Shown: positions 34,366 to 63,421 of the stretch, in pieces
Layout of the letters: every line of letters begins with the position of its first letter
Position numbering within the stretch: position 1 is the first letter of the stretch
From: Paraspadella gotoi
Taxonomy: Eukaryota; Animalia; Chaetognatha
DNA length: 64,000 bases
Direction: 5' to 3'
NCBI GenBank assembly: GCA_051294375.1
Contig: CM119265.1
Span: 6,581,489-6,645,488, forward strand
Made by a program: the position numbers and the translations under genes
Notes under the pieces: generated by a model
Seen by the model: only the letters and a program-made list of their open reading frames with translations
Database searches by the model: none
What the model was told of the DNA's origin: nothing

Positions 34366-34813
34366 GATGGAAAGTTGAATTGGCAAACATAGAACTTAGT
34401 TTTCTTTTCGTTTAAATCACGTTTCAAGTTGGTTGATTTTGGTGTCATCCAAACTGAGATGGAATCCACCAATAAAAAGTGATTTCATTCCTCCAACTTC
34501 ACCAATTGCGATTCTCTTTAGACACCTCAGTTAAAGATAACTACTCGGTCTCAAAAAAACTATCTTTCTCCTCATCTCGATATGACCTAACAATGATAAT
34601 TCCATTTTAATTAATGTTTTTCGCCTTTGTTGACTTGGTTGAACTATTGATTGGATCATATTTTTCATTGACAAAGTGAATCTTTTTCTACTCCATCTTA
34701 AACTTTAACTTTTTATCTCAAGACTTTTTTTTTGCCTTTTTCCATTTACTACGTTTAGTTTCGAAGGACAGGTTTTTCAGTCGGTGTTCAGCCAATCGCC
34801 GGTCGTCTAAGAC

Positions 34814-34827
34814 GTTGCCATGACAAC
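34814..34827. promoter_or_regulatory. RFX X-box GTTGCCATGACAAC with an adjacent CCAAT box (34792)
   Basis: 13/14 match to the palindromic consensus GTTGCCATGGCAAC, about 105 bp upstream of the first ATG of the cilia cluster. Confidence 0.85.
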
Positions 34828-34930
34828 CAAAATACTCTCTTGGCTCCCTTATTAGCGTTGTTTTCGAGATTCCGACATTAGCTATATGGCTATATATTGT
34901 TTCTTCTCTTAATTTTTGATCAATATAACA

Positions 34931-35836
34931 ATGAACAACACTAAACCTACTTTTTTCGGGTCCGGCTATAAGGAATCGGGAAGGTCTGATCTCTATGCGC
35001 AACCTCAACGAATTTCCAACACGAACGGCCTCAGTAAATTTATCATTCCTCGTTTTCCGGCCGCGCGCAATCGAGTCGTGTCCAAGTACCCCCCGCCTTT
35101 TCACCCCGACGCGACCCCACACGGGCGATTAAATTTCCATGTGAGTGTAAAAAAGGCATGCGCTTCCCATCATGCTTCTGGCGTGCGTCTCTCCAAGGTT
35201 GTAATCATCGGCGACAGCGCAGTCGGTAAGACCGCCCTTGTCAATCGATTTTGTCGCGACGCTTTCGAGCGCGACTACAAAGCCACCATCGGCGTAGATT
35301 TCGAGGTGGAGCGTTTCGACGTGCTTTGTCAGCCTTACAACCTGCAGATGTGGGACACGGCGGGGCAAGAGCGATTCCGTGCCATCGCCGCCGCCTACTA
35401 CCGCGACGCTCACATCGTCATCGTCGCTTTTGATCTGACCCGACGAGAGACGCTCGACGCCGCAAGCCAATGGCTCAATGATGCACTAAAAGAAACAGAC
35501 CCGGAAAGGGCGCTGACGTTTTTGGTCGGCGCCAAGCGCGATCTTTTATCTGACGAAGAATTTGACGCCTTTGAACCGCGATGCATCAGCGTCGCCAATA
35601 AGCTCAGGGCCGAGCTTTGGATCACCTCAGCCAAAACGGGATACAACGTTGACGAACTTTTTCACCGTGTCGCGGCACTTGGCTTCGAATCCTTGGTGCG
35701 AGAAGAGAATCATTTCGAGGAGGAAGATAAAAAAGGAAAAATAGGAAATGTACTGACAAATACAGATGTGATAGATTTAAAATCTAGCGATTTGTTTGAA
35801 AAAAATCCTTCGGGCTGCTGTAAGCTTACTCGGTGA
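34931..35836 (+). CDS. RAB36: Rab34/Rab36-family small GTPase, single exon
   Basis: LSKVVIIGDSAVGKT, RFCRDAFERDYKATIGVDFEVERF, WDTAGQERF, N-terminal extension and near-terminal CC prenylation motif, all characteristic of the Rab34/36 clade. Confidence 0.88.
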   Translation: MNNTKPTFFGSGYKESGRSDLYAQPQRISNTNGLSKFIIPRFPAARNRVVSKYPPPFHPDATPHGRLNFHVSVKKACASHHASGVRLSKVVIIGDSAVGKTALVNRFCRDAFERDYKATIGVDFEVERFDVLCQPYNLQMWDTAGQERFRAIAAAYYRDAHIVIVAFDLTRRETLDAASQWLNDALKETDPERALTFLVGAKRDLLSDEEFDAFEPRCISVANKLRAELWITSAKTGYNVDELFHRVAALGFESLVREENHFEEEDKKGKIGNVLTNTDVIDLKSSDLFEKNPSGCCKLTR

Positions 35837-36128: not shown

Positions 36129-36196
36129 GGTTCTAGTTGGTTGGCGACTTCGCCATGGCGATATCGCCATGGCGAAGTCGCCAACCAACTAGAACC
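36129..36196. repeat. Perfect 68-bp palindrome centred on GATATC
   Basis: GGTTCTAGTTGGTTGGCGACTTCGCCATGGCGAT|ATCGCCATGGCGAAGTCGCCAACCAACTAGAACC. Confidence 0.95.
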
Positions 36197-36340: not shown

Positions 36341-39300
36341 ATGGCGGACGAGGGCGAAGCCGTCACAAGTGCCGACGACGCCGGCGCCACCACCACCGAT
36401 GGTGCTGACGCCTCAACGCTCGCAGCTGAGGATTTGGAGGCGCCAGAAACGACGGATGCCGCCGAGAGTGGCGAAGACGCCCCCGAAGGCTCGCCGTCCG
36501 AGGATCCCCACGCCGCAGAGGAGGGGGAATCTCAGATGGCAATATCCGAACGGACCAGTCAATCGGCGGGCGGCGAAGAATCAGCCATGGAGGAGGGGAC
36601 GAAGGAAGAGGAGGAAGAAGAAGGGGAGGGAGAAGAGGAGACAGAGGGAGTGGAGGGGCAAACTGGAGGGACGAGGGCGGCGACCACGGAAGGGAGCGGC
36701 GAAGAACCGGAAATGTCGATGGCACAAGTGCGTTTCATTTTTGTTGTTGTTGTTGTTCTTTTCTATTCCTAGGTTGAGTATAACGTTTTTCAGTCGGATC
36801 TGCTTATCTCCCCTCAATCTTGTCGGTCATTCACTTAAATCATGTCAGAACATCGAATTATGATAAATTATCTTAGGCAGATCCGACATTGTTTGATCAA
36901 ACTTGTTATTTTGATTGTTTTGTATTTCAGACCGGAAATACCTACGTAGGCTTAGACGGTCAACTCTAATGTTGTCACTTTACAATTTACTTATTTCTTT
37001 ATTTATAAATATCAGATGAATTTAAAAAGAATATGTTTTCTTTTTATCTGGATGTGAATCCCTGCCCGTTATTCTCCCATTCAACAGCGTTTGATGATGG
37101 ATCTGGATGACGAAGACCTCGTTCCCGGCAGCAGCGAAGATGAAGGAGAGAGCGAATTTCAGGACGAGGAGAGCGGAGAAGAGGAGGAAGTGGAAGACGA
37201 AGGAGTCACGCGCGACGATCTCATTGGCGAATACCACGCCATGCTTGAGGAGAGAGAGTCGCTGCAGCAACGACGGTGACGATTGCTCGAAAGTTGACCT
37301 TACTCTTGAGCGACTGCTCGTTAAGGACTTATTTAAAATCCAGGCATTTCTTGGAAAACAAATTGGCGGAATATTTTCGGAAGAAACGAGATGATAAAGC
37401 CGAAGCTGATAAGAAGCCGCAAACTGCGGAACAGGAGCAGAGATACGTAAAATATATGTCGCAGTTGGAGGATTTGAAAAACGAGGTGAAGTGTTAATTG
37501 TTTATCAGTTGATTTCTTCGATTGTACATTTATTCTTTCATGCGTTATTAATCACAGGAAATCAGCGAGCAAGAGATATTTCAAAGAGAACTTCAGGAAT
37601 TGCGCGTTTTGTGTCAAAGATTCGACCAAGAGGTCGTCGATGAACTAGAAAGCTTCAGGTAAAATTAAGCAACAAATACTAGTAATTATATTAGAAATGT
37701 TATGTAATGGGGTCAGAGGGATCGCCCATGAGTAAACTGCTTGTCTTTTTGATAAACTTTGGCCAGATTATATAAACGTAACGTCGCTCTGGGCGCCATC
37801 AATAGCCGAACCGGAAAACCGTTAACGGTTAAAGACATCGACGTTTACGAGGCGCGGGAGACGCAAAAGACGGCAGAGGTCGTCGCCGTCAGACTCGAGA
37901 ACATCAAATTAAAAAACAGGTGACTATAAAATATAAACAAAAGTCTTAACGTAAAATACGATTTAAAAGTAATGTACACTGCGGCGCTAAAAAAAGAAGA
38001 CACTTCTTTCACACCGAAAAAAACTATATTGGATGGATGGATTTTACTAAGATATAGAAACATAAAACAAAGCTTATTGAAAGATAAAGCGATTGGTCTA
38101 GGTCCCATTAAAATCGATCAAAGCGTCAGAAAGTTATAGGATGTCAAAGTCGATTGGTACAAAACATATGACGAGAATAAATTAATTTTAATCAAGAAGA
38201 GTCTTTAACTTTTTTTTATTATAATATGTTTATAATATATGCGATTTTATTCGAATACAACGAGGTTGATTCAGTACAATCATCATCAACAAACAAACAA
38301 TATGAAATTAGCTGAACAAATTCAGCATCAATATCTGTAAGGATAGGTGTCAACCATTTTCAACCTAAATCAAATTAAAATAAGTAAAAAAATTATATAG
38401 AAAAATAATCTTTTAAAAATAAAAAAAAATAGTTGAGTGATAACTTACCCAAAATTAATTTCAAAGCTTTTTCAGATTAAAATTTTTTTTCCTTATGGCA
38501 TCTCATGTTAAAAAAGACTAATATAAACTCTTACAATTATATTAAAATTATTTTTTTAAATTTTTATTATAAAATTATATTTTGATTTTGAGATAATTTA
38601 AAAAAAATTGATTGTTTTCAATATTTATTATTAAAATGCCATATTTGGCAGCAATTAAAAAATATTTTTATAAAAAAGTAATATAAATTTATTGCCAACC
38701 CTTTTATATATTTAATTCCATTAAGATTTTATTAATTCTATATTGTAAACATAAGTCAGAAAAAGAAGTTTAATTAATACTAACCTTTAAAAATCACTTT
38801 TTCCCCAATTCTGTTTTGAGACTCTGACTTTAAAGTCTTGCTATATAGTGGTGTATTTAAAAATACATAGCGTCTTTTTTTTTTTTTGCGTCGCAGTGTA
38901 AATTGTAAGTTATTTTAAATTGATTTCAATCTTAAAAAGGTTGAAAAAACGCGAACAGCAATTGAAGGCCAAAGAGGAGTTGGCCGAGGGACTTCATCTC
39001 ATCGATTTCGAGCAGCTCAAAATAGAAAATCAAACTTACAACGAGAAAATAGAAGAGCGAAACGAGGAATTGCTGAAGCTAAGAAAGAAAATCACGAGCA
39101 CAGTGCAGGTGTCACTTCTTTTTTCTTCTCACTGAAACCATTTTTTACTTCTATAGTCTTCTTTCCTATTCCTTTTTTTCACGAAAAAGGTCCTCACCCA
39201 TTTGAAAGAAAAATTGCAATTCGTTCAAGCGGAAAATCAAGTGCAAAAGGTCAACCTGAAAACCTTGGAGTCCACCGTCGCGAGCAGGAGGGACGTTTTA

Positions 39301-39810
39301 TCGAAGACGAAACAAGGTTATCGAGGAAATGAGATTTTCCCCCTTTTTTTCGAGCTTTGATCTATATGTACAAAATTCTTTAGGTTTCCGTTCCCACGCT
39401 TTCATGAATTACAATTTTAAATGACGAGATACAGTATACTAACGTTGATTTTTTATTGTTAAACTTTCCTTATCGTGGCGACTTTTCTTTTCCTAGGTCG
39501 AGACGCTTTGCGAATCGATAATCAGAGACTGCGGCTCAACTGTGGCATGCTTGGAAACGAACCTCTGCTCAGGGACTTTGAGGAAAAAAAGAATGAGGCA
39601 GAGATGCTCGAGCAAAAACTTGAAAGGTGGAGCCTAAAGAATAAAGAGTGAAGACTAAAGGGGGAGGAAATCGGAAACTAGAACTGTTTGAAATTCAAAT
39701 TTCGTTGTTCCTTTTGTTTTTCCAGATTGAAACGTCAGCACGCGGAACTCACGTTGAGTTGCAGTGGAGTGCGCAAAAAGATTGAACAAGTTCGCGCGAT
39801 TAGGTCCTAA
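36341..39810 (+). CDS. CCDC96: Coiled-coil ciliary protein CCDC96/CFAP184 (DUF4201), about 9 exons
   Basis: Acidic N-terminus, KLAEYFRKK, AVRLENIKLKNR, KEELAEGLHLIDFEQLKIENQTYNEKIEERNEELLKLRKK, GMLGNEPLLRDFE. Confidence 0.9.
36787..36908 (+). mobile_element. Internally deleted HINE-family copy
   Basis: Both sub-terminal repeats (GTCGGATCTGC ... GCAGATCCGAC) and internal sequence shared with 43997-44742. Confidence 0.65.
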
Positions 39811-40036: not shown

Positions 40037-41649
40037 ATGGCCGACTTAAATCCGCTGGCAAACCCCAAGGGGGTCAAGCTTCTGTGCGAAATGTGCAACA
40101 AACCTGCCTTTGTCCAGTGTCACCGATGCAAAGTCACCTACTACTGCAGCAGAGATCACCAGGTGCGATTCGAAACAATTTTTTGCCTGATGTGGTTTGG
40201 TTTTTAAAATTTTAAATAGATAAAAGATATTTTGGACTCAGGATGCCGACTGGGTGGGAATCCACGAAAAGATCTGCCAACTCTTGATTCCCCTTCGAAC
40301 GCCGGCGTCGTTCTCGAGCTCGGAAGAGCAACGACAGCGACGCCAAGCGGAGATCGTCGTGCGCCAACGCGAGCTGCTCGACCTCACCCTCACCACCGGC
40401 TCCAAGCTTCTCTTCGAGGGCAAGTACGAGCAAGCGGTTCCCGCCGCCATGCAGGTCGAGTTTGGCTTTTGACCTTAAAGTGGGCGGTTTCACTCTTCTA
40501 ACCTTTCCGGTTAATGCGGAACCTTAGGCTCTCCGTTTTGCGATGGACGTCTACGGCAGTGGCTGCATTGAACTCGTTCCAGCTTATCTCATTCTGGCAG
40601 AATCCAGTATTGGTTTGGGAAAACTTGTTCAGGCAGAAGAATATCTTTCCCAGGTTAGCTTTAAGAATGGTTTATTTATTTTTATTTAATTTTGATTAAT
40701 CACCTAATTCCTTGTTAATTTGATAAATTTTAGGCCCAGTGGGCGGTTTTGCAAAAACCCGACTGTTCGAAGGCAGTTCGGTCCAAGTTGAACCGAAACC
40801 TCGGCATGCTTCACGCAGCTGAACGTAATTATTCCGACGCGTTGCGATATTTTTCAGACGATATTTACTATTCGTCAGACGAGTTCGGAACCGACAGCAT
40901 TCACACGGCAGGGGGCTTCTTTCACATGGCTACTGTGTTTCATAAGCAGGTTATTGGACGCTCCATGGGAATTAAAACGTAGTTAACAAGACAGAAAAAT
41001 TTTATTACCAATTTGTTAACAATCAGGGCCAAACGGAAACCGCGGAGTCTTTGTACCTAGAAGTGACTGACATATGGTATAAGCATTTGGAGCAAATTGT
41101 GCAGAGAATGACGACGCGTCCACCAACTCCAAAGGGTGAAAATTATAAAAAAACTAAAAACTAAATGCGAAAAATTTTATATCTGTTACTTGCGCTTCTT
41201 TCATCCTATGCTGCCAGGACTCGGCATAATCCACACGAAGAAAGAGGAACCAAAACCTGGTCTTGATGAAGCTCAAGAAGCCGAGGCGCGCCAGGTAAAT
41301 TCTAAGATATAAAAGAGAAATTTCTTTGCTAAGTGGTTTTCTTCCTCCCCTTTTTTAGGTCTTGCACACCATCCACGAATTGCGTGAGAGAGAGCCACCG
41401 GCCAATCGTGACATTTACGCCAAGGTCAGCTTAACATTTTTGAAACGATATCGGGGAGTTCTCCGCCATCTTTACCTTTTGTTTGACGCTTCTTAGGTCG
41501 TACTGACTCTGGCCATGCTTAACTTCGTCATGAACGAGCCCGACCGCGCGAGGGATTGCGCCAGTCACGCGCTGATGTCGCTCCAGGGAAAAGAAGATTC
41601 CGCAGTGGCGCACGACGTCGTCACTTTTCTCAAACTCGTTGACGTCTGA
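40037..41649 (+). CDS. ZMYND12: MYND zinc finger + TPR-like protein ZMYND12 (axonemal), about 9 exons
   Basis: NPLANPKGVKLLCEMCNKPAFVQCHRCKVTYYCSRDHQ-DADWVGIHEKICQLLIPLR, ELVPAYLILAE, DDIYYSSDEFG..TAGGFFHMA. Confidence 0.9.
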
Positions 41650-41920: not shown

Positions 41921-44900
41921 ATGCCTATGCCGATGAATGGAAAGAGCATGCTGCAAACGCCGGATCCTTATCACACTCCTGGATACTGCGGCTACGTTCC
42001 GCAATGCAAATACCGAATCGGAAACACATACGGCCACACCACTCACAAATTACTCAAAAATCCCGAAGTGCCAAGCTCTGGAAAACTTGTGCTAACAGAC
42101 ATTTACACAGTAAGCTACTGAATCCGGCTAAAGATTGTTCGGTTCTTTTGTAAACAACAAATTTGCATAATGCGATTTACCAGAAAAAGATCAATATTAC
42201 TATTTTTTTATTGAGGTGGTTCTTGGGAAATTCTTGAATTTTATATTACAACGAAATTAAATTTAGGAAGGAACTGATGTGACGTTGCTCAACAAAAAAG
42301 CTCAAAATGTGTCAACCAGAAACGCATCATGGGGCGATCAAAAATACACTGACCGAATGGTTCCTGGCTACACCGGCTTCATTCCGAAAGCCCAACATTA
42401 CTTTGGGAAGAGATACGCCGAAGGATGTGTCAACTCCGTTTCAGATTTCCAAGTTAGTTTCTCTTTATGTAATCTACATTACGTAAACTCTGCCACATAG
42501 CATATTATAGATATTGCCAATATTTTGTTATTTTATTTTGAATCAAAAAATAATTTAGGAATCGCTAGACAATTTAAAAATTGCTCAAGATATATTGATG
42601 ACCTTTTTTCAGCAGATTTTAAGGATTTTAAAACACATCTTGCTAACATATATCCAGCAGCACTTACTGTCAATAAACTTAATAGTACAAATACAAATGT
42701 AGATTATTATTTAGACATTAACATTAAATCAGAAAACCAAAATCTTACTCTTTCTGTTTATGATAAAAGGAATTCCTTTTCTTTTGAAGTAGTTACCCAT
42801 TTATGGACAGTTGTATTCCTAGAAAAGCAGCATTAGGTGTATTTATTAGCCAATTAATTAGATATGCCAGAATATGTTCAATATTTACATATTTTTCATC
42901 GTGAGCAATAAATTTAAGCAAAAAATTACAAAGTCAGGGTTAAGAAAAATGGGAATTAAATTTTTCAATATTTATAAGGAACTAATAATAAAATATAATG
43001 TTACTGAAGTTGATCTATTTTTAAAAAAGATAAAAAATAACAAAATTAAACCTCTTTAAATAATAATAATAATAACATCAACAATATTATTTAAATAACT
43101 TATTTAACTGTTGATTAAAAACGTCGAATTTGGGTTCAAGTGCATTATTCACTTTGTCGGTCCGCCCCATCAATCTTGTCGGGCATTCACTTATGTCAAA
43201 ACATCGAATTATGATAAATTATGCACAAAAAAAATGATGTCCATCCTTCTGTCCGTCCCACCTTAGCAAAAACATCAATTACTCGTGATTTGATGGATGG
43301 ATTGGAATGAAATTTTGTGTGTGGGTAGGAAAGTGTGTGATTGAGCTGGAAATCAAGTTTCGATGGAATTGTCCGAGTGGAAATGAGTTAAAATTGAAAA
43401 AACAAAAAAATATATTTGACTATTTGAACGCAAAATTACTCATGAGTGCAATTCGGCGATTGACTTAAAATTTTGTATGTGGGTAGGAAAGTGTGTGATT
43501 GAGCAGGAAATAAAGTTTTGATGGAATCGTCCAAGTTGAAATGAGTTAAAATGGAAAAAAACAAACAATCTATTTCACTATTAGATTATGCCTTTTTTTA
43601 TTTTTATATTAAATGTAAATTCAAGCTGCATTAATTAATTATTAATAAATAAGCAATTAATTAATTATTAATTATTTGCAATTAATTAATTTTGTGATCG
43701 AGATTGTTGTTTTGTGATTGAGAGGCGAGACAAAGTGGAAAACGATTTTGACACGAATAAAAAAAAATTATTAATTATCTGATCAGCTGCTTACCGCTAA
43801 AGATCGTGGGCAGATCCGGCATTGTTTGCTCAAGCTTGTTTTTTTGAAAACCAATATTTCGATCTTAATTGACAGATCATCGTTCAGGGTAAAATTTAAG
43901 TGGAGGGATTTATCCCTGTTGTATTGTTTGACTATCTCTCTCTCTCTCTCTCTCTCTCTTTCTTACTAAGAGTCTTCGCTAAGAGTCTTAACTCACTTTT
44001 TAGTCGGATCTGCTTTCAGCAGATCCCGACTCTATAATTCACTTTGTCGGTCCGTCGGTCCGCCCCCTCAATATTGTCGGGCACTCACTTATATCAAGTC
44101 AGAACATCGAATTATGATAAATTATGCAAAAAAAACGATGTCCGTCCGTCCGTCCGTCAATCCGTCCGTCCTTAGCAAAAAACACCAATTACTCGTGATT
44201 GGATGGATGGATTGGAATGAAATTTTGTGTGTGGGTAGGGAAGTGTGTGATTGAGCTGTATATGAAGTTTCAATGGAATCGTCCGAGTGGAAATGAGTTT
44301 AAATGGAAAAAAAAAATTCACTATTTGAACACCAATTACTCATGAGTGGATGGGGCGATTGACTTGAAATTTTGTATTCGGGTAAAAAAGTGTGTGATTA
44401 AACTGGAAATCAAGTTTCGACGGAATTGTTTGAGTGGAAATGAGTTTAAATGGAAAAAACAAAGAACCTATTTTACTAATTGATTATGCTTTTTTTTCTT
44501 TTTATTTTAAATGTAAATACAAGATGTATTAATTAATCAATCAATTAATCAATCAAAACAAACATTTCTGATCAAATTAATTAATTAATTGCCTAATTAA
44601 TTAAATAATTAACTTGAATAAATAAATTATTAATTAAATAATTAACTTGAATTAATTATTAATTAATTATTAATTAATTATTAATTAATTAATTACCGAT
44701 AATGATCGTGGGCAGATCCGATATTGTTTGCTCAAACTTGTTTTCTCTCATTTCACTTTTACCCTGAACGATGGTCAATTAAGAGCGAAATATTGGTTTT
44801 CAATAAAAAAAATATACTGCACTTTTAACCCAAATTCGACGTTTTTCATCAATAATTAAACAGTGTATGCTATGACTCTACAAACTCAACATATTTAACT

Positions 44901-45913: not shown

Positions 45914-46372
45914 TTTTATCATGCCTCGGTTTTTTGATCGCGATTAATTGAATTTCTGATTGCAGGGCGTCCCCAGTTGGTTGGCTAGAAATCCAACTAC
46001 GAATAGTCTACCCAGGAGCGCGAGAGCCATCTCAAGCGTGGTTTAGATTTAGTGTGTGCTATTGTCGAATGTCGAATGGTTCTTATCACCAAGACGTAAA
46101 TTTCAATAGAGAATAGACGTAATTTGTACATCCTTTTTCGGGATTAGATGACCAGTATGATTGAGACGAACCCCCCCTCACTCGCTTTTAACAATCATCC
46201 TAGCAAGATACAACACGATATCTCGCACTCCACTTTATTTGTATTCCTGGGGGTTTTTTTGTCCTTACGGCACTAGTCATGAATTATTGTTTTGTCACTC
46301 TTTCGGTGCGATCTCTCAATTTGATGTTTTTCGTCTTCAGGAAAAATATTTTAGCTTAGTTTTAAGCGAATC

Positions 46373-46844: not shown

Positions 46845-47083
46845 TTTTCTGTCCTTTGTCAATTTTCATTACATTGAGACTAATTACATCTCATTTGACC
46901 TATAGTTAAATAAACGAAAGTCGCTAGATAATAGGTCAATCGGATCAAACTACATCGTTATCTCAATCGCTTCCTAGTCATTATGATGTCATTTTGTTAC
47001 ATTTGTACGCCTTTCATTTTTTCAACGGTATGATTTTTAGATTTTTGTCTCGACCAGTCATTGATTGAACGCGAGTATAATCG

Positions 47084-49181
47084 ATGGAGTCGCCGCCATC
47101 TCAAGCCGCTGAGGCTTCGGCCGAAACCTCGAGCTCCACCGAGGCTGCGCAGCCTTCCAAATGGCTTGACGCCCACTATGATCCCATAGCCGGCCTGTAC
47201 ACATTCTCCCAGTGTATGACACTGGCCGATATCTACGCCGACGGCGATTACAAATTGGTCATCGCCGACCTCGGCAACGGACTGACGAACATGAAGCTAA
47301 AGGTCTTTAAAGGAACAACAATGATTCAGCAGAACACTATCATCGATCTTCCGACGGGCGTCTGCTCCTTCTTCATGGACGCCAACGAACCGAAGACTCC
47401 TGCCGTTGCGGTCGCTTCTGGGCCCTTCATCTATGTTTACAAGAACCTGCGTCCCTACTTTAAGTTCACCCTACCGTCCCTACCTGTCAACCAGCTGGAG
47501 CAGGATTTGTGGAATCAAGTCCGGGAGGACCAAATAGACGTCAACATCCTGAGGGAGATGTTGGACGGAATTCGTCAAGACGGTAGCCAGGGCACCCTGA
47601 CCGTCAGATCGCTAAAATTTCTCCAGGTTGGACGAAGGCCTTTTTTCTTTCATCATATTTTAATTTTTAAAAAGTTTCTTTTTGTTAAACTGGAAATGTT
47701 TGTAGCTTCACCCCGAGGGATTAGAGTCTTTCGCCAACACATACAAGCACGCACCGCTCAAAAAACAGACTGTCATCACCTGCCTACAAACACTAAAAAA
47801 GTCGATGGCCGACGACGACGCTATAAGTTGCCTAGTTTTGGGAACGGAGAGTCAATCAATTTACATTCTGGACCCCGAGGTTATTATAATTGTTTTTTTG
47901 TATGAAATTTTCATTAACTTGAATTTTTCTTAATTAGAATTAATAACGATAATAATTACAAACACTATTTCTTAGGCCTTCACCGTTTTGTCAACTATGA
48001 CACTTCCTTCGGTTCCTGTGCTGCTCCACGTTTCCGGTTTATACGACGTTGAATTTCGCGTTATCGTCGCCTGTCGCAATGGCGGCGTTTATGTCGCGCG
48101 TCGAGGCCAAACCAGTGGGAAATTATTGTTTTCGCTAAATGCTCAGGCTGTGGGACTCGACAAGGTCAATAAGACAATAGTCGTCGCTTGTATGGATCAG
48201 TCGCTGCAAGGCTACAGTACCAAAGGGAGGTGAGGACACTGCTCAATTTCTTTAGGAGCAACAATGAAACGCGAGATTAATTAAGTCTTTTAGGTCGCTT
48301 TGGTCTGTAAATCTTCCGGCCAAAGTTCTGTCCATGGCGCCTATGGATTATTCTCAACGAGGTTACCAAGCCGTTTTAGTTGGTCTGGCCAATTGCGAGG
48401 TTCACATATACAACGAAAAATTTCTCGTTCACAGCATGAAGACAGAGGATCTCGTGACAGGTTCGTCATTTGTCGGAGATTTTAACTCGTCTTGTGTTCA
48501 TGGTTCATTCCTTTTTTTTCAGGTATAAGGTTCGGTCAATTCGGTCGCGAATCCAGCGCCCTCATCCTCACGACTCGCGGAGGCGGACTTTCCATCAAAA
48601 TCCTCAAACGTAACGCGACGTTCGAGGGCCGAGAGTCCGCTCTCGGGCCACCCGCCGCTCAGAGCTCACGCCTCAACGTCCCTAAGAAGACAAAACTGTT
48701 TGTGGATCAAACGATGCGTGAGCGTCAAAACTGTATCTCCATGCATCGTCGCTTCCAGCAAGATCTTTACCTCTTGCGTCTCAAGACGGCGCGAGAATAT
48801 TGCAAGACGTTGGACACGTCGCTGACGCCCGTCAGCACCAACGCATCGGACCCTTTAAAGCTTTCGGCACAGATTCAAGGCATCGGACCAACGTTCAAGC
48901 TGACCGTCTCTATACAGAACACCAGCTTGACAGCTCCCTCCATGGGCCTAGCCATTTCTTTCGGCTACGACGACTCACTTTACCAACTGCAAGATACCTT
49001 TTTAAAACTCCCTATGCTAGTACCGGGCCTCAATTACGCGTTCGAGACTTTCGTCGAAAGCATCAGCGATAAAGGTGTCGCGGATACGATCAAAGTGTTT
49101 GTACTCAAGGATCAAAGCTCTGCGCCACTCATCACGGCAATGATAAACATGCCCGTCTCGGAAACCGTAGTCGTTGTATAA
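47084..49181 (+). CDS. BBS1: Bardet-Biedl syndrome 1 protein (BBSome), 5 exons
   Basis: SKWLDAHYDPIAGLYTFSQC, LADIYADGDYKLVIADLG, YVYKNLRPYFKFTLP, LNVPKKTKLFVDQTMRER, LITAMINMPVSE. Confidence 0.97.
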
Positions 49182-49404: not shown

Positions 49405-49887
49405 ATGACAAGCTACCGAGCTGCCGATTCGAAGCGTGAGGAGTTCCGGAAATATCTCGAGAAAGCGGGAGTCTTGGACGCCCTTACCAAGGTTCTCGTC
49501 GGCCTGTACGAAGAACCGGAAAAAGTGAGATTCTCTTCGAGAAATAAAAAATAGAAAAAAGATTAATAATTAGTCACGATTTGGAATGATAACGGCGATT
49601 TTCCCACCTTAGCCGAACAATGCTCTGGACTTTCTGCGCCAGCATTTGGGTGCGACTCCGGACACGGCAGACGTGGAGGCCCTGAAGCTCGAAGTCACAG
49701 AGTTGAGGAACAAGGTCAACGTATTATATTTATAATTTACCAATAGAAATCTCATCTTTGAACGGTTCGGTGACTTTAAATTCATCCTATATTTTAGGTG
49801 GAGCAACTGAGTGACGAAAACGCGGACCTTCGCGCTAAACTTCAGCAATACGAGCCCCCGGCTGACGATGCCCCGCCCGCTGAATAA
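49405..49887 (+). CDS. MYCBP: c-Myc-binding protein (AMY-1/FAP174; axonemal component), 3 exons
   Basis: MTSYRAADSKREEFRKYLEKAGVLDALTKVLVGLYEEPEK-PNNALDFLRQHLG. Confidence 0.95.
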
Positions 49888-50453: not shown

Positions 50454-52826
50454 ATGGTTCCTAAGAGAGAGATGGACCCCGTTTTTCTGGCATACAGTTG
50501 CTTCAGGCGCAGAAAGTTCGAGGACTGCGTGAGGCTATGCACAGACGTGCTTGATAGAAATCCATACGACCAGGTTAGCGTTTCGATATGCGTTCTTTGT
50601 ATGTAAAACTACAACAGTGTTTTATGACAGGCCGTTTGGGCGTTAAAAACGCGTGCCCTTACGGAGCAAGTTTACGTGGACGAAGTGGAAAACGACGAAG
50701 AGGGTATCGCCGAAATGTTGATGGACGACAACTCCGTCTCATCGGTAATCTTTGTTGTTGTAGTGGTTAATTTTTTATTATAACTAAATTGAAATAACAA
50801 ATGATATGCTCTACTTTTTTGTGATCGTTGAGGATTCTTTTATTATCTTGTCACCTGTTGAAGCGCAGATTGCCCGACCTGGGACGAGTCTGAAGACTGC
50901 GCAAGGCCGTCGTCCCGGAACCACGGGACCCTCTCAGGGAGTCCGACCGATTTCTTCTTCCGGTCGCCCTCTCAGCGGTTTTGTCAGACCAGGCACTCAG
51001 GGAGCCAACAGGCCTTCCACCATGGAACAGGCCATCAGGTTGAAAGGGGTACTTTTACTATAATTATTTAATTAGTAAAAAATTGTCTGAAATTAACATG
51101 TTACACGTGAAAAAAACGCTAAAAGAAAGACTCTTTTAATAAGGGCGCCACGTACTGCGCACACAGCACGACCCGTGACTTCGGCCTCCGGGCGATTCGT
51201 TCGCCTTGGGACGGCATCAATGTTGTCAAATCCCGATGGACCTTTTATCAATTTGGCCAGACTCAATCTTGCCAAGTACGCCGCAAGACCACAGGTAAAA
51301 AAGGATTTGAATGAGGCCACAGAAAATGGCTAAAAATAAAGATTTTATTTTATTCTAGTTGGCCAAAGCATTGTTCGAATATATTCTTTATCACGAAAAC
51401 GATGTCAGAAACGCCCTAGATCTCGCTGCGAAGGCGACGGAGGCTTCGGTTTTCAAAGATTGGTGGTGGAAAGTTCAATTGGGTAAGGCGGTTGAATTTT
51501 CCTTGCACCATTGCGCTATTGCGCTAAATATTTTTTCAAATTTAGGAAAATGTTATTATCGTTTGGGTCTTTTTCGCGAGGCAGAGCAGCAATTCAAATC
51601 CGCAATGAAGCAACAGAATATGTTGGACACTGTTTTGTTACTGTCGAAAGTTTACGTCCGTTTGGACCAACCGTTAACTGCCATCGATGTTTTCAATGAG
51701 GTAAACAGTTTTAATTTCGAAATTGTGGAATTAAATTAAAACAAAAAAAATAATTAAAGCTATTTTTTTATTTTTTGTTCAGGCATTAGACATTTTTCCC
51801 AATGATGTCAACCTTTTGACGGGAATCGCTCGTATTTATGAAGGCTTGGATGATTTGGCAAAGTCAGTAAAATGTTACAAAGAGGTGTTGCAACAAGTAA
51901 GTTTACGTATTAGTTGACAATTTTAGAATATAATAAATAATATTAGTTTTATTATTATAATTAGCAATTATAATCTTTAGGATTCCACTCATATCGAGGC
52001 CATTGCCTCATTGGGAACCAATCATTTTTACTCTGACCAACCAGAGGTTGCTCTCAGATTTTACAGAAGGCTTCTACAGATGGGAGTCTACAATACAGGT
52101 TTTGTTCATTAATAGTTAGTTTTGATTATTATACGTAGTTTTTCTTACCTAATCATTAGAACTCTTCAACAACTTGGGTCTGTGTTGTTTTTACGCTCAA
52201 CAATACGACATGTCGCTAACATGTTTCGAGCGAGCTCTTTCCCTTGCAACTGACGAAACCGTGGCTGATGTTTGGTATGTTTTTCTATCTCACCTGATCT
52301 TAGTAGCCAAAACTGAATCAAAAATTGTTTACCTCTTTTTTAGGTACAACATCAGTCATATCGCTGTCGGCATAGGTGACCTTGCGTTGGCTTATCAGTG
52401 TCTCCGACTAGCTATTAGCGTCACCAATGATCACGCTGAAGCTCATAACAACTTAGGTAGCAAGTACTGTGAGTAAACTCATTTGCGAATTATGATATAT
52501 TGTTGTAAATTTATGTAAAGGAGTGTTGGAGATAAAAAAGGATCATGTGGAAGCTGCAAGAGGCTTCTTTCAAACGTCGTCTTCTTTAAACCCACATCTC
52601 TACGAACCACAAGTACTGTGTGTGTTTACTCGGGCGAATTAATTATAGTAGTATAATTTTATTATACTTTTTTATTTTTAAGTTTAATTTCGGATTGCTG
52701 GCCAATCAAATCGGGGATCTTCAATCATCTTTCAACTCGATCAAAAAGTCCCAAGAACTTTACGGGGATCACAAAGATTCCATCGATCTCATGACCCAAT
52801 TAAAGAAACATTTTGCCATGATGTGA
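50454..52826 (+). CDS. TTC8: TPR protein TTC8/BBS8 (BBSome), many short exons
   Basis: FRRRKFEDC..NPYDQAVWALKTRALTEQVYVDE, IARPGTSL, SGRPLSGFVRPGT, ARPVTSASGRFVRLGTASM, KDWWWKVQLGKCYYRLG, NNLGLCCFYAQQYDM. Confidence 0.97.
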
Positions 52827-52954
52827 TTCTTCTGATCACTCCATGTTTCTGTCACTACTAACTAGTCAAATAGTTATCAATTTTGTCAATGTTGTCACTT
52901 TCTCTAACTTATTACATCTTAGTTGTCTTGGAACCTATCCTACGTTTTGAAAGG

Positions 52955-54688
52955 ATGTTTCCCGACTCTAATCGTCTGATGGTTAAGTGTTTTGAAGAGG
53001 ATCACGGAGTGTTTCGTCTTTCTGACTGTTTGGCGCGGATAGTGGGTCTCGTCTCTCGTTCAGAAGCCTGTTGGTCGGAAATACGCGATGCGTACGAGGC
53101 CTACCACGAACGAGTTGGAACTTGCTCCGCCCTCGACGCCCTTCTCATTAACGCCTTTTTAAGCGTCGCATCTCATGGTTTCGGATCCAATATCCCGGCC
53201 AACATCATATCCAAGTGGTTGTTTCAAGCCGCAAAGCTTTTCTCGCATCGAATATATTGCAAGGACTTCTGGCTATCTTGCGAGAATTTTTTAGAACAGC
53301 ACCGCGTTGGCAATGACGACGACGACGACAACAAAGAAAACGCTTACGACAACGCTGAAAGCAAATTTAACTTTTTCGATTATAAAACATCATCTGCAAA
53401 ACTTAATGAAAATAATATATCAGACAACCAAAAAAGCAAAACGGTCGAAGGTGATCCGGAAGATGAGTTCGACCACTTATTCAGCGGAGACGTCAAGACT
53501 CAGCCATCCCTCTTAAAACCAATCGCTAAAAACAAAATACGAAATTTTGAATTATTGAAAACAATTCCTTCGAAAAACCCGAGTAATCTTTTTGAACATT
53601 CTGCCTTTCATCAGCGAAGTCGCCATTTAGTCGCGGAGACGGCCTCGCTAAACGTTGTGTCTTTTGTTCGCGACCTCGGCACTCGACTCGATCCTGACGA
53701 TGAAATGAAATTATCGTCTGACGTCGTCGCCAAATTTCTGAACCCCAACATGACGGGCGCCGATCTTTCTCTACTTTGCAATTTTTCGTCAATGGTTCGC
53801 CTCGAGCCTCTCGTCGGTGTCCCTTCCGGTCACTCGCGCGTCGTCGACGGAATCGTTTTGAGACTCGATGGTGACGTCGATTCGGGACAAAAACGCGCCG
53901 TTCTCTTCGCCGGCGATTTCACTTTCACTTACACCCATCTCGGCTTCAAGAAGAATCTCAACTCGGCCGCCATCGTCTTCAAAAACCCCTCTCAAGAATC
54001 ATTGACCGAACATTCGGGAAAAGAGAAATGGCTGTCGCGTACTCAGAACTTAATCGAAAAGCTTCGAATAGGTCTCGTCGTGTGCAAAGGCAACATAGAT
54101 TTCAATCTCAAGAGTTTCTTCGCGCAACGGAGGATCGGTTTCGTCGAAAACGTAGGATCGGAAAAATACCGGCTACTCGCGAAACATCTCTCTTCGCGGC
54201 CGATAACTTACGCCACCACTGAACAAATGAACTTTTCCGCGATCGGTGTCGTTTCGCTGTCAAAAATCCAAACCAACTCACTTTTTCCCCATCTTTACGC
54301 TGTATCATCCACTAATAACGCACCACCGTCTTTTGTTTCCGCGCTAGTCTGCGCCCCGAGCGATGCGTGGAGCGAGCTTCGCTGTGACCGAGTCTCTCAC
54401 GCCCTCCGTCGGTGGGAACTGTTTTTCGAAGACGGCGGTCTGGTCTGTGATGCGCGTGCGTTGCTCTCGGCCTTTCGTCAAAGCCTCGACGCCTTCGACG
54501 ATGAGATGGGATACTCTCGAGATCTGGCCGACGTCATGCGGTGTCAAATGGAGTCTTTGCTTGAGGGAGACTCCTTGGAGAATTGTCATTTGAACAAATT
54601 TGTCGTCGAGAGGCTGTTGGAACTTTCCGCTGTAATCGCGGATTTTTCGTTGACCGTTTCGCCAGAATGTGTTAATTCCAGTTTTTGA
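52955..54688 (+). CDS. BBS12: Divergent chaperonin-like BBS protein, most like BBS12; single exon
   Basis: Chaperonin apical-like region SRVVDGIVL..AVLFAGDFTFTYTHLGFK..KWLSRTQNLIEKLRIGLVVCKGNI, recalling the BBS12 GDLTENYRHLGF motif. Intronless. First ATG after the acceptor at 52922. Confidence 0.72.
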   Translation: MFPDSNRLMVKCFEEDHGVFRLSDCLARIVGLVSRSEACWSEIRDAYEAYHERVGTCSALDALLINAFLSVASHGFGSNIPANIISKWLFQAAKLFSHRIYCKDFWLSCENFLEQHRVGNDDDDDNKENAYDNAESKFNFFDYKTSSAKLNENNISDNQKSKTVEGDPEDEFDHLFSGDVKTQPSLLKPIAKNKIRNFELLKTIPSKNPSNLFEHSAFHQRSRHLVAETASLNVVSFVRDLGTRLDPDDEMKLSSDVVAKFLNPNMTGADLSLLCNFSSMVRLEPLVGVPSGHSRVVDGIVLRLDGDVDSGQKRAVLFAGDFTFTYTHLGFKKNLNSAAIVFKNPSQESLTEHSGKEKWLSRTQNLIEKLRIGLVVCKGNIDFNLKSFFAQRRIGFVENVGSEKYRLLAKHLSSRPITYATTEQMNFSAIGVVSLSKIQTNSLFPHLYAVSSTNNAPPSFVSALVCAPSDAWSELRCDRVSHALRRWELFFEDGGLVCDARALLSAFRQSLDAFDDEMGYSRDLADVMRCQMESLLEGDSLENCHLNKFVVERLLELSAVIADFSLTVSPECVNSSF

Positions 54689-55566: not shown

Positions 55567-58028
55567 ATGGCAGCTCCGCCTCCTCCAGAGCGCAAAAAGA
55601 TCTTCATCAATGACGTTGATGAGTACCTTGGAAAGTTCTTGTCCAAGTGGTTGTCTCGCGTGGCGCCGGGCGACACTCTCAAAGGCGCGGGCGAAGGCGA
55701 GGGTGACGAGGATGAGGCGCCGCCCGTGGAAGTTGGCGAGGACGGCGTCAATTTAAACGCTTTCATCGTCGTCGGAACACTGATTGACCCGGAGAGCAAG
55801 AAACCGGAATGGGTGACCGAGATCGTGGACAAGAACAACCCTCAAGAATACGCGACCGCCCTGGAGGAGGCCGATATCATTATCTACAACATCGTTGAGA
55901 GCGCGGACAACATCGAACCGGCGCTGGACATCGTCCGAACGCTGAGCACGGAGGGGGCCACTGCCATCGTCAAAAACCGAATCTTTATCATGGTCTCGAC
56001 GGTGTTGACGTGGGCGCGAAGCAAGCCGCTCGATCCAGATGACCCGGAAATTCCCTTCACCGACGACGACTATCGGAGAAGGAAGCCGCATTTGGTAAGA
56101 AGATGTTTGTTTTGTCGAATCGATATTTTTTTGACTACACGGATATTAATCTGACATTGATAAAACAAAATTTATGTTTTGTAATTCGTTTAACTCGTAT
56201 TTCGCCAATATTTTTTTCTTCCTTAAAAACAAGCAGCTTTTTTTTCTCTAGAACTTCAAAGAGCATTGCGCCGCGGAAAAGTTGGTAGTGAAGATTGGAA
56301 AGTCGAATAAAAATAAATTGGCCACTTATGTCGTCGCCGCCGGCCTCGTCTACGGATGCGGCGAGGGAGTCTTTCACTTCTTCTTCAAAGAGGCCTGGAA
56401 CAACGCCACTGTCCTCCCCATTTTTGGCGATGGCACCAACGTGCTTCCGGGCATTCACGTCAGCGACCTAGCCCAGATCTTGCACAACGTGATAGACCAG
56501 AAGCCGAAGACTCGCTACATAGTGGCTGTCGACGACTCGCAAAATACCCTCGAGGAGATCGTCAAGGCCGTCAGCGACTCGCTCACCACCGGCAAAGTCG
56601 TCAAGATGCCCAAAGAAGAAGCGTCGCTGATCAAAGGAGTGACCCAGATGGAGTTGGACATGCTCCTCGTTAATTTGAGGATGGAGAGCGTGTTCGTCAA
56701 GGAAAACTTTCGCGTGATGTGGGTGTCGGAGTCCGGGCTGGCTGCCAACATCGTCAGCATTGTCAAGGAGTACAGATTCACCAGACAGCTTCTGCCGATT
56801 CGCCTCTGCATTCTGGGACCCCCGGCGGTCGGAAAATCATCCGTCGCTAAGCATCTTTGCGAACATTACAAGTTACATCATATTCACTTGAAGGACGTTA
56901 TCGACTCGGCTATTGCACGAGTCGAGCAAAGCGCTAACAACGCCCTGGAAGGTGATTTTTCAAAATTTATTTAAAAAAAATCGTTGTTTGTTATCTATAA
57001 AAATATAAATTTATCTTTTGTTTTGTTGTTGTTGATCGCAGACTCAATTCAAGTTTGTACCATTATAATAGAATTTATCCATTATAATAGTATTTTCAAA
57101 GACATTGTAAATCTTATAAACTCCAGGGACGGATCAGGAGGAGAACGAGGACGACACCGCGGCCGAGGATGCCGAATTGTTGGAGGCTCTCAAAGCCAAC
57201 ATCGACGAGAACAACGGCCGCCTCGACGACGGATTCGTCGTTCGTTTTGTCCGACACAAGCTGATGTCGCCGCCGTGTCAAAACCAGGGGTTCGTCCTCG
57301 ACGGCTACCCGAAAACCCTGGCCCAGGCCAAGGAGCTCTTCACTTCTGCCGATGACGACATAGACCCCGAGGATGCTGATAAGCCCTTGTACGAGACCCG
57401 TATTATGCCGGAGATGGTCGTCAACCTCGAGGCGCTCGACGAGTTCCTCAAGGAGCGAGTCATGGCGCTGCCCGAGAACGTGGTCCACGGGACACACAAC
57501 ACTGAGGAGGGTCTTCTACGTCGCTTGGCCCAATACCGCGCCGACAACACGGAAGACGAAACCGTCCTCAATTACTTTGACGAATTCGAGATTCACCCGG
57601 AAAACTTTGACGCCACCAAGGACCCCACCGACGACATGAGCTTCACCGCCCAAGAGATCATCCGTTTGCTAGGCGCGCCTCGAAACTACGGCCCGACAGC
57701 GGAAGAGATCGAGGAGCAAAAACGTCTGGCGATGGAGGCCCGTTTGAGACGTGAACGAGAGGAAGAGGAGGAGCGGCAGAGAAAGGAGGCGGAGGAGCTG
57801 TTAGAGCGAAGGAAGAACGAAGAGATGTGGGCGGCCAAGTTGCAAGAAGTTAAGCGCCAAGAGTACGAGCAACTGGAGACCCGGTCGGTGCCACTGAGAA
57901 ATTATCTCATGAAGCACGTGATGCCAACGTTAACGCAAGGTCTGGTCGAATGCTGCAAGGTCCGACCGGACGATCCTGTGGATTATTTGGCAGAGTTTCT
58001 ATTCAAGCACAATCCTCAAGTGGATTAA
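55567..58028 (+). CDS. AK7: Adenylate kinase 7 (ciliary), 3 exons (approx. 55567-56094, 56251-56951, 57128-58028)
   Basis: STVLTWARSKPLDPDDPEIPFTDDDYRRRKPH, P-loop ILGPPAVGKSS, CQNQGFVLDGYPKT, PRNYG, C-terminal Dpy-30 motif PLRNYLMKHVMPTLTQGL..RPDDPVDYLAEFL. Confidence 0.96.
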
Positions 58029-58280
58029 TGCTCAATTTTATTGTTTGTAATTTGTAACTCATGGAAATCACGTTTTAGTATTTTAATGTCACTGATTGCA
58101 CTGATATATTCTAGTCATCCCAAGGCTGAAGTTTATGATCAGTTTGATCACTTGCATGTCGATTTTACTGATAAAATACAAGCATTTAACGATAGGTTTT
58201 AACCGATTATGTGGTGAAACTAAATTATTTTTACTTTTTTTTTTTTCAGTTTTATTTTTAAAATTAAAAATATATTGACA

Positions 58281-59696
58281 ATGCCACTTCCGGTTCGTGA
58301 CTTCACGTGGCACGAGACAATCGATTGCGTAATGCTCTCCGTTCCACTCAAGGGCGTCAAACGCGAAAAGATCGACATCCTCGCCGCCGACGATTACGTC
58401 AAAGTCAACTTCCCTCCTCACTTTTTCGAACTCTTCCCCTTCGCCTCCATCGATGCCGACCGCAGCACCGCCACCATCGCCGAGGGTTGCGTTAACTTTC
58501 GTCTTCTTAAAAAATCCCAGGAAATTTGGGGCGCGCTGGAAGCGCCCTTCAGCCGCGATAAGGCCATCTGCCGGGACAAACGACAGGCCGCGTTGGAGGC
58601 TTTTCAAAAAGGGGAAGAAGAAAAGCGAAAGCAAAGAGACGTGACGAAGAACGAATTAAAAAGATTCACCGTGCAGAAACAGATCGATCGCGAAGAAATC
58701 GATCGACGACGCATCACCGAAATCGTGGAAACGACAAAGAGCGACGCCATGGAGGATCTGGAAGAATGGCGCAATGCCCAGCAGAAGGCAGAGGAGGAGG
58801 AGGCGAGAAAGGAGGAAGAGACGAGGGCGAGGAGAGCCAAGATGCTAAAGGCGAAGATGGAGAGAGAGGCGAGGGCGAAGAAGGAGAAAAGGGACGACGA
58901 TTTGGGCGACGGAGACGTCATCTTTGACGAGGCGCCTCCCGTCAGAAGGGGAGGAAAAATTTGCGTCAACTTTACCGAAAGGGTGTTTCCGACGCCAGTC
59001 AGAGAGTCGACGACGGATGCGGAGAATGAGTGGTTGAAGAAGCAAGCGGAGGCACGAAAAGCCTGCGACGTCCAGGACGAAAATCTCAAGCCTGAAGAAA
59101 AAAATCCCGAATGGCTGCAAGAAAAAGGCGACACCTTCTTCCGTCAGGAAAACTACCAGGCCGCAGTAAACGCTTATAGCCACGGAATCCGCCTGGGCGG
59201 AAAGAACCCGCTTCCTAGCTTGTTCTCCTCCCGCGCTGCCTGCCACCTGCGCCTGCGCAACCTTCACAAGGCGCTCGAGGATGCCACGCGTTCTCTAGAT
59301 CTGCTGACGCCGCCGGTGCCGCAGAACGCGGCCGCGCGTGCTGAGGCGCACGTTCGTCGCGGGACCGCTTTCGCCGGCCTAGAATGTTTCGTCGAAGCAC
59401 TCGTCGAGTTCGAAGGCGCCCACAAGATCGAGCCCGGCAACGAGGACGTCAAAGCGGAAATCGTTAAGCTGAGGAAAATGATACAGGGGAGTTCGGAGGA
59501 GAGCGCGAGGAAAGAAAGAAGGGACAAAGCGAGGGGCGGAGGAGACGGAGTGGACGAATTAGAAAAACGAATGGCGACAACCGCTGTTTGCAACGAAGAC
59601 GATGAAGATGATGAAACTGAAGATATCGACATTGACGATGTGTTAAAGAAGCAACAAGAGAGAAGAAACGACGCGGTTTTAGAAAGACACAAGTGA
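58281..59696 (+). CDS. DNAAF4: Dynein axonemal assembly factor 4 (DYX1C1), single exon
   Basis: N-terminal CS/p23 domain MPLPVRDFTW..SVPLKGV..KVNFPPHFFE, GKICVNFTERVFPTPVRES, EWLKKQAEAR, EEKNPEWLQEKG plus TPRs (LTPPVPQNAAARAEAHVRRGTAF). Confidence 0.95.
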   Translation: MPLPVRDFTWHETIDCVMLSVPLKGVKREKIDILAADDYVKVNFPPHFFELFPFASIDADRSTATIAEGCVNFRLLKKSQEIWGALEAPFSRDKAICRDKRQAALEAFQKGEEEKRKQRDVTKNELKRFTVQKQIDREEIDRRRITEIVETTKSDAMEDLEEWRNAQQKAEEEEARKEEETRARRAKMLKAKMEREARAKKEKRDDDLGDGDVIFDEAPPVRRGGKICVNFTERVFPTPVRESTTDAENEWLKKQAEARKACDVQDENLKPEEKNPEWLQEKGDTFFRQENYQAAVNAYSHGIRLGGKNPLPSLFSSRAACHLRLRNLHKALEDATRSLDLLTPPVPQNAAARAEAHVRRGTAFAGLECFVEALVEFEGAHKIEPGNEDVKAEIVKLRKMIQGSSEESARKERRDKARGGGDGVDELEKRMATTAVCNEDDEDDETEDIDIDDVLKKQQERRNDAVLERHK

Positions 59697-62104: not shown

Positions 62105-62196
<92 letters not shown>

Positions 62197-63071: not shown

Positions 63072-63123
<52 letters not shown>

Positions 63124-63384: not shown

Positions 63385-63421
<37 letters not shown>

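Follow-up and report, generated by a model that had tools for sequence, protein, structure and literature searches.

Eleven ciliary genes head to tail behind a single RFX X-box: a candidate leader-resolved operon

Eleven intact, non-paralogous genes with a ciliary theme occupy positions 34931-59696 of the window (the whole stretch of DNA that was analysed, 64 kb), head to tail on the + strand, with an RFX X-box before the first of them. We read this run as one function-themed operon, driven by one promoter and resolved by spliced leaders (SL), and we put the probability of this reading at about 0.55. Transcription from the X-box promoter would give a precursor of about 25 kb over the eleven genes; 3′ cleavage, together with SL trans-splicing at acceptors before the downstream genes, would then yield the individual mRNAs. 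Not every junction would be fully resolved: at several of them, spliced RNA continues over two or more genes. A single switch would in this way command BBSome parts, axonemal structural proteins, a dynein assembly factor and a ciliogenesis Rab, and its site of use may be ciliated cells, the male germ line or both. A single promoter for all eleven genes is likely; we infer, in addition, that four gaps besides the one crossed directly by RNA are read through, that these genes receive SLs, that RFX binds and that internal promoters are absent.

All eleven gene models close, with GT-AG introns (39 in all) and open frames. In their order along the + strand, the genes are RAB34/36 (34931..35836, a single exon, 301 aa), CCDC96 (36341..39810, 9 exons, 493 aa), ZMYND12 (40037..41649, 8 exons, 361 aa), FAM166/CIMIP2 (41921..45988; 6 exons and 283 aa in the form supported by RNA), PIERCE1/2 (46373..46844, 2 exons, 133 aa), BBS1 (47084..49181, 5 exons, 598 aa), a MYCBP-like, FAP174-like gene (49405..49887, 3 exons, 105 aa), TTC8/BBS8 (50454..52826, 12 exons, 509 aa), a fast-evolving BBS12-like chaperonin (52955..54688, a single exon, 577 aa), AK7 (55567..58028, 3 exons, 709 aa) and a DNAAF4-like gene (58281..59696, a single exon, 471 aa). 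Pfam identifies CCDC96, FAM166 (CMI2B-like), PIERCE, BBS1 and AK7 (ADK and Dpy-30); TTC8/BBS8, ZMYND12, AK7 and CCDC96 are named by PDB matches, and RAB34/36 by Rab-34/36 clusters in the Atlas. The BBS12-like protein gave no match in a word-indexed search and 21 with a full HMMER scan; among ten matching clusters looked up, two carried a name, and both were BBS12. Two identities are weaker. The MYCBP-like protein matches a 93-aa 'flagellar associated protein' of PDB entries 7som/7sqc, which we take to be FAP174/MYCBP, and the last gene, with the domain order CS then TPR and RPAP3 as its best PDB match, is presumably DNAAF4. The window's three single-exon proteins were absent from the protein collection that was searched.

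An earlier note on this DNA had described eleven consecutive + strand genes, non-paralogous, ciliary in theme and with no unrelated gene among them. This description holds, its theme being supported by the Pfam, PDB and cluster matches, with the reservation just made for MYCBP and DNAAF4. The eleven proteins show no cross-matches among themselves, which rules out tandem paralogy, and a search of the gaps and of two large introns, which found decayed repeat pieces and no hidden gene, rules out intervening genes. On both sides the flanking genes are non-ciliary and lie on the minus strand (an EMI/EGF gene upstream, an IgGFc-binding gene downstream). If 5-15% of genes are assumed to be ciliary, the chance of ten more ciliary genes on the same strand is 1e-16 to 6e-12 per start, and chance clustering was rejected. 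The genes are thus non-homologous, functionally related and physically clustered, as in operon-like clusters. The earlier note takes these genes to be dispersed across chromosomes in vertebrates; in human, several pairs of them lie on common chromosome arms, and PIERCE2 adjoins DNAAF4.

The X-box (34814..34827) has one mismatch to the palindromic consensus and lies 103 bp before the first ATG, behind an NF-Y type CCAAT box found by consensus scan (34790..34798, + strand). It is the only match with at most two mismatches in the 64 kb, where 0.30 would be expected. As 28 of 100 shuffles of the window contain a match somewhere, the position of the box matters more than its presence. In this respect the 500 bp before RAB34/36 stand apart: none of 200 shuffles equalled their X-box score, and in the ten internal gaps the best X-box-like site was equalled by 12 to 194 of 200, all these scores being obtained with the analyst's own consensus, not a curated matrix. 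Both parts of the claim made earlier, a near-perfect X-box with a CCAAT box ahead of the first gene and no equally good one inside the run, therefore survive scans and shuffles. It counts against a one-unit reading that the box is a palindrome and stands upstream of the divergent EMI/EGF gene as well.

Initial models gave stop-to-ATG gaps of 504, 226, 271, 459, 239, 223, 566, 128, 878 and 252 bp, as first announced; nine of these stand, and the fourth falls from 459 to 384 bp, RNA having revealed an extra, last intron of FAM166 (45890-45964), with which the gene stops at 45988. The genes are adjacent and on the same strand; four of the ten gaps are below 250 bp and six above, a point against an operon that is to be read with care as 250 bp is a gene-to-gene limit in PMC12460157 (in its available text) and the stop-to-ATG distances include UTRs.

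RNA evidence comes from assembled contigs of one run (X1) of one study, compared over 2.5 kb of the cluster; contigs are assemblies, not single molecules, in which genes can become joined through read-through or UTR overlap. The first to be considered, contig 3, has lost all four introns within the compared stretch, joining FAM166 exon 2 across a 2.8-kb intron, and continues without a break from FAM166 through the 384-bp gap (45989..46372, + strand) into PIERCE. Its remaining 2807 nt would extend to 37402 if spliced and to 39489 if not, inside CCDC96 either way. The next, contig 4, begins at 47041, and its 4538 nt would lead to 52887 if spliced and to 51578 if not, into or past TTC8; RNA for the BBS1-DNAAF4 half is inferred from this length. 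Since introns are removed, a DNA origin of the X1 contigs is ruled out. Over the ten gaps, RNA continuity is direct at one and deduced from length at four; one is uncovered and four lie beyond the compared data. The polycistronic read-through proposed at the outset is accordingly seen across FAM166-PIERCE and implied at four gaps by length, and finds no contig at PIERCE-BBS1, where none of those compared covers 46812-47040, an uncovered stretch that by itself proves nothing. Depth is 410 for one of these contigs and 267 for the other. In run X2 no contig matched the cluster stretch, and X3 gave a single 70-nt piece.

How would such a precursor be resolved? BBS1 offers a candidate trans-splice site, a T-rich acceptor (47023..47040, + strand) whose AG, at 47039-47040, immediately precedes the first nucleotide of its contig and is the top-scoring acceptor in the ATG-free stretch before the gene. 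Printed chaetognath leaders end in AAA, and by our reasoning the assembly graph would for this reason break exactly at 47041. In all ten downstream genes an AG occurs within the ATG-free leader (for instance at 46340 before PIERCE, 55452 before AK7 and 58249 before DNAAF4), and the first gene has none in its 44 nt. Unpaired acceptors scoring above the lowest decile of 39 real ones precede eight of the ten; a stricter cut-off keeps an acceptor in six gaps and finds a donor-like site also in two. Of 1000 shuffles, 21 equalled the mean score over 12 downstream genes. The RNA contigs show none of the eleven genes with an SL attached; the window contains no SL-like sequence (the closest has 11-14 mismatches) and no Rfam family. 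Contig 3 is unbroken at the PIERCE acceptor, whereas a break there could be anticipated if SL resolution were complete.

That the DNA belongs to a trans-splicing chaetognath is most likely, judging from a GRP94 clade in which one member bears a translated SL3 leader. The window also encodes GRP94, and 28 proteins are 86-89% identical to it; the 13 of them included in a tree form a clade with the window's protein at 100% support. One of the 28, P0210, starts with nine residues identical (9/9) to translated chaetognath SL3.2 (PMC2481426 Table 3), a match attained by none of 20000 shuffles; SL1, SL2.0 and SL4.2 match at most five residues. According to the available text of PMC12460157, trans-splicing affects about half of chaetognath genes, and 18% lie in operons. 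As side observations, a quick tree of 48 of the fetched BBS1 proteins places the window's BBS1 in a spiralian polytomy, and a FastTree of 40 of 120 GRP94 matches places its GRP94 beside chordates; the two placements disagree, and neither tree includes a named chaetognath. A metagenome scan yielded five distant BBS1 loci (58-66%), two with long flanks and none with another of the eleven genes.

The interruption at PIERCE-BBS1 is an argument for dividing the run into two or three SL-resolved operons that lie side by side, or for one operon with internal promoters, the upstream RFX site acting as a common enhancer. We hold this to be unlikely, albeit worth serious attention. The blocks might be, for example, motile-cilia genes from RAB34/36 to PIERCE, BBSome genes from BBS1 to BBS12, and AK7-DNAAF4, which roughly matches function; the contig break comes with a change of depth and a canonical AATAAA at 46909, four CCAAT/ATTGG words lie in the longest gap, the 878 bp before AK7, and the first gap holds a perfect 68-bp palindrome (36129..36196) with two X-box-like cores. 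Yet none of the internal gaps exceeds its shuffles in X-box score, and the BBS1 contig starts behind a splice acceptor, with no evident start site. The PIERCE-BBS1 gap has only 239 bp, and filtering may explain why part of it is uncovered.

Fully spliced contigs that cover four and three genes by length might also be taken at face value, as stable polycistronic or nested 3′-coterminal mRNAs, whose downstream cistrons would be translated via a leader spliced ahead of them or by internal initiation. In keeping with this, the gaps after CCDC96, ZMYND12 and FAM166 lack a well-placed canonical poly(A) hexamer. We nevertheless find it improbable. Upstream ATGs, two to 14 each in nine of the ten gaps, speak against scanning translation of an uncut mRNA; the 'bacterial-style' mechanism of the earlier note is for the same reason likely wrong, and SL trans-splicing fits better. 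Contigs of relatives, known by transcript alone and not by gene order, are of single-gene size: 1983-2328 nt for four full-length BBS1 relatives and 2804-4016 nt for GRP94 (26/26 with a length), less than the 4223 nt needed for GRP94 and PDIA6 together. Assemblers, too, prune short leader and poly(A) branches, so that a contig can pass over a junction that is for the most part resolved. Slightly less credible still is an operon-like cluster of genes with separate promoters, co-regulated through one RFX enhancer or chromatin domain, its contigs joined by read-through or overlapping UTRs, for while no leader appears on these genes in the contigs and clusters of unrelated genes are known in fungi, plants and animals (PMC2776167, available text), all eleven genes lie on one strand, gaps of 128-271 bp would need to hold a 3′ UTR, a promoter and a 5′ UTR, X-boxes are missing inside the run, acceptors precede the ATGs and the likely phylum has SL operons.

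Animal operons are usually seen as by-products of trans-splicing, made of loosely related housekeeping or germ-line genes. The single leader-resolved operon that we prefer for the ciliary genes would have a counterpart in the same window, a run of GRP94, PDIA6 and cyclophilin B (PPIB) behind one ER-stress element (ERSE at 24704). We may tentatively, at somewhat less than even odds, go further: with one RFX promoter driving a cilium operon of eleven genes and 25 kb, and an ER-stress element driving a chaperone operon of GRP94, PDIA6 and cyclophilin B, chaetognath transcription-factor regulons might have been rebuilt as operons, genes might be grouped by function genome-wide as in bacteria, and operon membership might predict gene function. 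An eleven-gene unit of cilium genes alone behind a master-regulator motif, next to a chaperone unit behind an ER-stress motif, would show that an animal genome has been selected for the joint regulation of genes by function, and the old question of why animal operons form could be put to the long-read, ATAC and single-cell data already available for chaetognaths. Guilt by association would then make unknown genes in X-box-headed operons candidate cilia or ciliopathy genes.

It remains to set the run beside known systems. The ciliary regulon of RFX and its X-box (DAF-19, RFX2/3), of which BBS1 and TTC8 are classic targets, normally gives each gene its own X-box in the proximal promoter. Here the same motif, close to consensus and with a CCAAT box nearby, lies some 100 bp ahead of a ciliary gene; one box, however, precedes eleven genes. 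In the literature searched, subscription papers not being covered, we found no description of a ciliary operon in an animal. The main text and PDF supplements of PMC12460157 do not mention RFX, and the names of these genes were not found in its three PDF supplements; its gene table may list them. The following comparisons refer to the available text of the papers cited. In C. elegans, Ciona, Oikopleura and Macrostomum, operons have one promoter, a polycistronic precursor and SL resolution, as proposed here; they mostly contain two or three genes, with maxima of 8 in C. elegans, 6-7 in Ciona and 9 in Macrostomum, and spacers are near 0-60 bp in Ciona and Oikopleura (PMC2776167, PMC2760879, PMC7986045, PMC8629364). 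C. elegans operon genes are rarely related by function (PMC2776167), and C. elegans operons are also cited as grouping pathway genes (PMC2481426). Fungal and plant operon-like clusters likewise bring together unrelated, co-regulated genes for one function, but with separate promoters, mixed strands and mostly metabolic roles (PMC2776167), whereas here we see a single strand, RNA read-through and the building of an organelle. The closest likeness is to the SL-resolved operons of Spadella cephaloptera (PMC2481426) and Paraspadella gotoi (PMC12460157), with same-strand close genes, acceptors before the downstream ones and, as here, no need for an operon-specific leader. Their gene content is biased towards nitrogen and protein metabolism, finely regulated genes being said to be excluded, and the longest operon reported for a chaetognath has nine genes (ribosomal, ubiquitin, proteasome; PMC2481426, PMC12460157). 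An eleven-gene unit devoted to one organelle, with the motif of a cell-type master regulator in front, would exceed this maximum and depart from the housekeeping bias.

The eleven + strand genes at 34931-59696, the consecutive series described in the earlier note, could all be rebuilt exon by exon (11/11), with GT-AG introns and frames open throughout. The ten stop-to-ATG gaps listed there are equalled by the rebuilt models, save that between FAM166 and PIERCE, which falls from 459 to 384 bp with a last FAM166 intron (45890-45964, + strand) seen in RNA only; the altered C-terminus then runs to 45988, and the spliced and unspliced forms, of 283 aa each, differ at their C-termini. Intron 2 of the same gene (2.8 kb) carries an AT-rich 111-codon frame (42501-42833), presumably a decayed reverse-transcriptase piece, and nested inverted-repeat elements (43103-44860); intron 1 of CCDC96 has a related piece near 36810.

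For nine of the genes the identity is backed by names in databases: CCDC96, FAM166/CIMIP2, PIERCE, BBS1 and AK7 from Pfam, TTC8/BBS8, ZMYND12 and again AK7 and CCDC96 from PDB, the Rab-34/36 identity of the first gene from Atlas clusters, and BBS12 from the name of both named clusters (2/2) among ten looked up of the 21 matches to the chaperonin-like gene. This last gene (52955-54688) is highly divergent, the closest protein found being 31% identical, against 84-89% for the BBS1 and GRP94 relatives. MYCBP is the putative name of a protein matching the small flagellar protein of PDB 7som/7sqc, and DNAAF4 that of a gene identified by domain order. The ciliary theme is supported. When all eleven proteins were compared with each other no similarity was found, which agrees with their supposed non-paralogy, and no hidden gene appeared in the ten gaps and large introns; the run is, as the note has it, free of unrelated genes. 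Its neighbours are non-ciliary and on the opposite strand: an EMI/EGF-domain gene (about 31300-34250, -), divergent from the run, and a gene with IgGFc-binding and MopE motifs (about 60020-63400, -), convergent on DNAAF4. Assuming a ciliary fraction of 5-15%, the chance of ten more ciliary same-strand genes after a first is under 1e-11: the run is real, and far from chance.

The single near-perfect X-box with CCAAT claimed before the first gene is borne out. At 34814-34827, 103 bp upstream of the first ATG and 17 bp past a CCAAT word, lies the sole site in 64 kb that departs from the palindromic consensus at no more than two positions (home-made consensus scoring). A comparable site occurs somewhere in the window in 28 of 100 shuffles, but when the 500 bp preceding the first gene were shuffled 200 times, the score of the X-box was never reached. 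It lies likewise upstream of the divergent EMI/EGF gene. Most likely, with a probability of about 0.55, RFX with NF-Y would fire one promoter, and the precursor would be cis-spliced, cleaved, then given spliced leaders at downstream acceptors, resolution being incomplete at some junctions. The foremost rival, which we hold less likely, would be a division into two or three operons or the presence of internal promoters: no X-box in the ten internal gaps beats its own shuffles (best 12/200). The RAB34/36-CCDC96 gap contains a perfect 68-bp palindrome (36129-36196; 34-bp stem, fold z about -12) holding two weaker X-box-like cores; it has no Rfam match, and transposon relic, RNA processing signal and weak RFX site are candidate readings of its sequence.

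An AG is present in the ATG-free leader of all ten downstream genes, and none in the 44 nt of the first. Measured against the 39 real acceptors of the window, eight of these ten score better than the bottom decile, and 21 of 1000 shuffles attain the mean over twelve downstream genes (PDIA6 and PPIB included), a modest result; a stricter scan retains acceptors in six of ten gaps and donor-like sites in two. Upstream ATGs occupy nine of the ten gaps, so that downstream genes need new 5' ends. RNA contigs from one run were placed over 45100-47600 only. Contig 3 (4039 nt, depth 410) lacks each of the four introns there, passes unbroken out of FAM166, across the gap and on into PIERCE, and has its loose end at the end of FAM166 exon 2; its remaining 2807 nt would reach CCDC96 either way (37402 if spliced, 39489 if not), hence two further gaps crossed, as implied by length. 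Stable polycistronic or nested mRNAs, which such continuity might suggest, are improbable given the need for new 5' ends. A contig spanning two genes does not show a single transcript, and separately promoted genes with read-through are the least probable reading of all.

Contig 4 (4538 nt, depth 267) starts at 47041, directly behind a T-rich AG, the top-scoring acceptor of the ATG-free stretch upstream of BBS1; by length it would end at 52887, 61 nt beyond the TTC8 stop (51578 if unspliced), again implying two further gaps crossed. Chaetognath leaders as printed in PMC2481426 finish with an A, against a G in the genome at this place, and an assembly graph breaks where a shared word is preceded by two different letters, which would account for the start at 47041. 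The same start would result from a cis-spliced intron whose exon does not end in G, or simply from the ordinary end of a contig. No leader sequence was seen on the contigs over 45100-47600, and the uncovered 46812-47040 proves nothing.

A second themed run may be a further operon. The candidate, at 24704-30976 (+) and read from sequence, comprises GRP94/HSP90B1 (24922-27583), PDIA6 (27949-29843, 365 bp after it) and cyclophilin B, PPIB (30147-30976, 303 bp after PDIA6), all on the + strand, which act together in ER folding. Acceptors lie 5 and 20 nt upstream of the two downstream ATGs. A perfect CCAAT-N9-CCACG at 24704, which we take to be an ATF6/NF-Y element, has no second copy in the window, and such an element turns up in 11 of 100 shuffles; further CCAAT words precede GRP94 and none occur in the two internal gaps. 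Such an ER-stress element is by itself ordinary; the interest lies in PDIA6 and cyclophilin B as neighbours. The two catalytic domains of PDIA6 are separated by a long Gly/Ser linker in which cysteines are scattered (28623-28780, +). Elsewhere, an animal haem peroxidase gene (about 1500-7260, +; Pfam An_peroxidase) is presumably cyclooxygenase-like.

Named matches are not close, the best reaching 72% for BBS1 and 74% for GRP94 over most of the query. Closer relatives, which are transcript-length records, number five for BBS1 (the four full-length ones at 84-86%) and 28 for GRP94 (86-89%); the contigs of these GRP94 relatives are too short to include PDIA6 (26/26 with a length). The two trees disagree in wider placement, and neither holds a named chaetognath. 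One GRP94 relative, P0210, which falls in a clade with 100% support and with the window's GRP94 as its sister, has an N-terminal extension matching translated leader SL3.2 (PMC2481426, Table 3) at 9/9 residues (0 of 20000 shuffles); three other leader forms matched 5 residues at most. Judged from its residues, the extension is the translation of a chaetognath spliced leader, and for this reason we read the genome as most likely that of a chaetognath. The leader is seen in 1 of 28 records, most others starting with the start methionine or beyond it and thus being unable to show one; extensions of this type might serve to mark chaetognath entries in collections without names. None of the other cilia-run genes lies near five distant BBS1 loci, weak evidence for a lineage-specific order. 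At two metagenomic loci, L002 (9983-11737) and L003 (5261-7081), BBS1 is a single open frame without introns, and the gene upstream of it is unrelated and runs on the opposite strand.

PMC12460157 has chaetognath operon genes marking the germ line, and bioRxiv 10.1101/2025.01.31.635879 describes bulk sperm production and ciliated sperm ducts in these hermaphrodites, so that a programme for sperm tails is no less plausible than one for somatic cilia. Our literature search found no description of a ciliary operon, nor the length, theme and master-regulator motif of this run in print; the gene table of PMC12460157, outside that search, may list these genes, possibly split there by a 250-bp rule. 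The run is likely a leader-resolved operon of the kind known in chaetognaths (PMC2481426, PMC12460157), where operons hold 18% of genes with a protein-metabolism bias, finely regulated genes being said to be excluded (PMC12460157). Reported maxima elsewhere are 8 genes in C. elegans, 6-7 in Ciona and 9 in Macrostomum (PMC2776167, PMC2760879, PMC7986045, PMC8629364); PMC2776167 describes the genes of C. elegans operons as seldom linked in function, and PMC2481426 has a contrary remark. The longest chaetognath operon reported in PMC12460157 has nine genes and is itself loosely themed.
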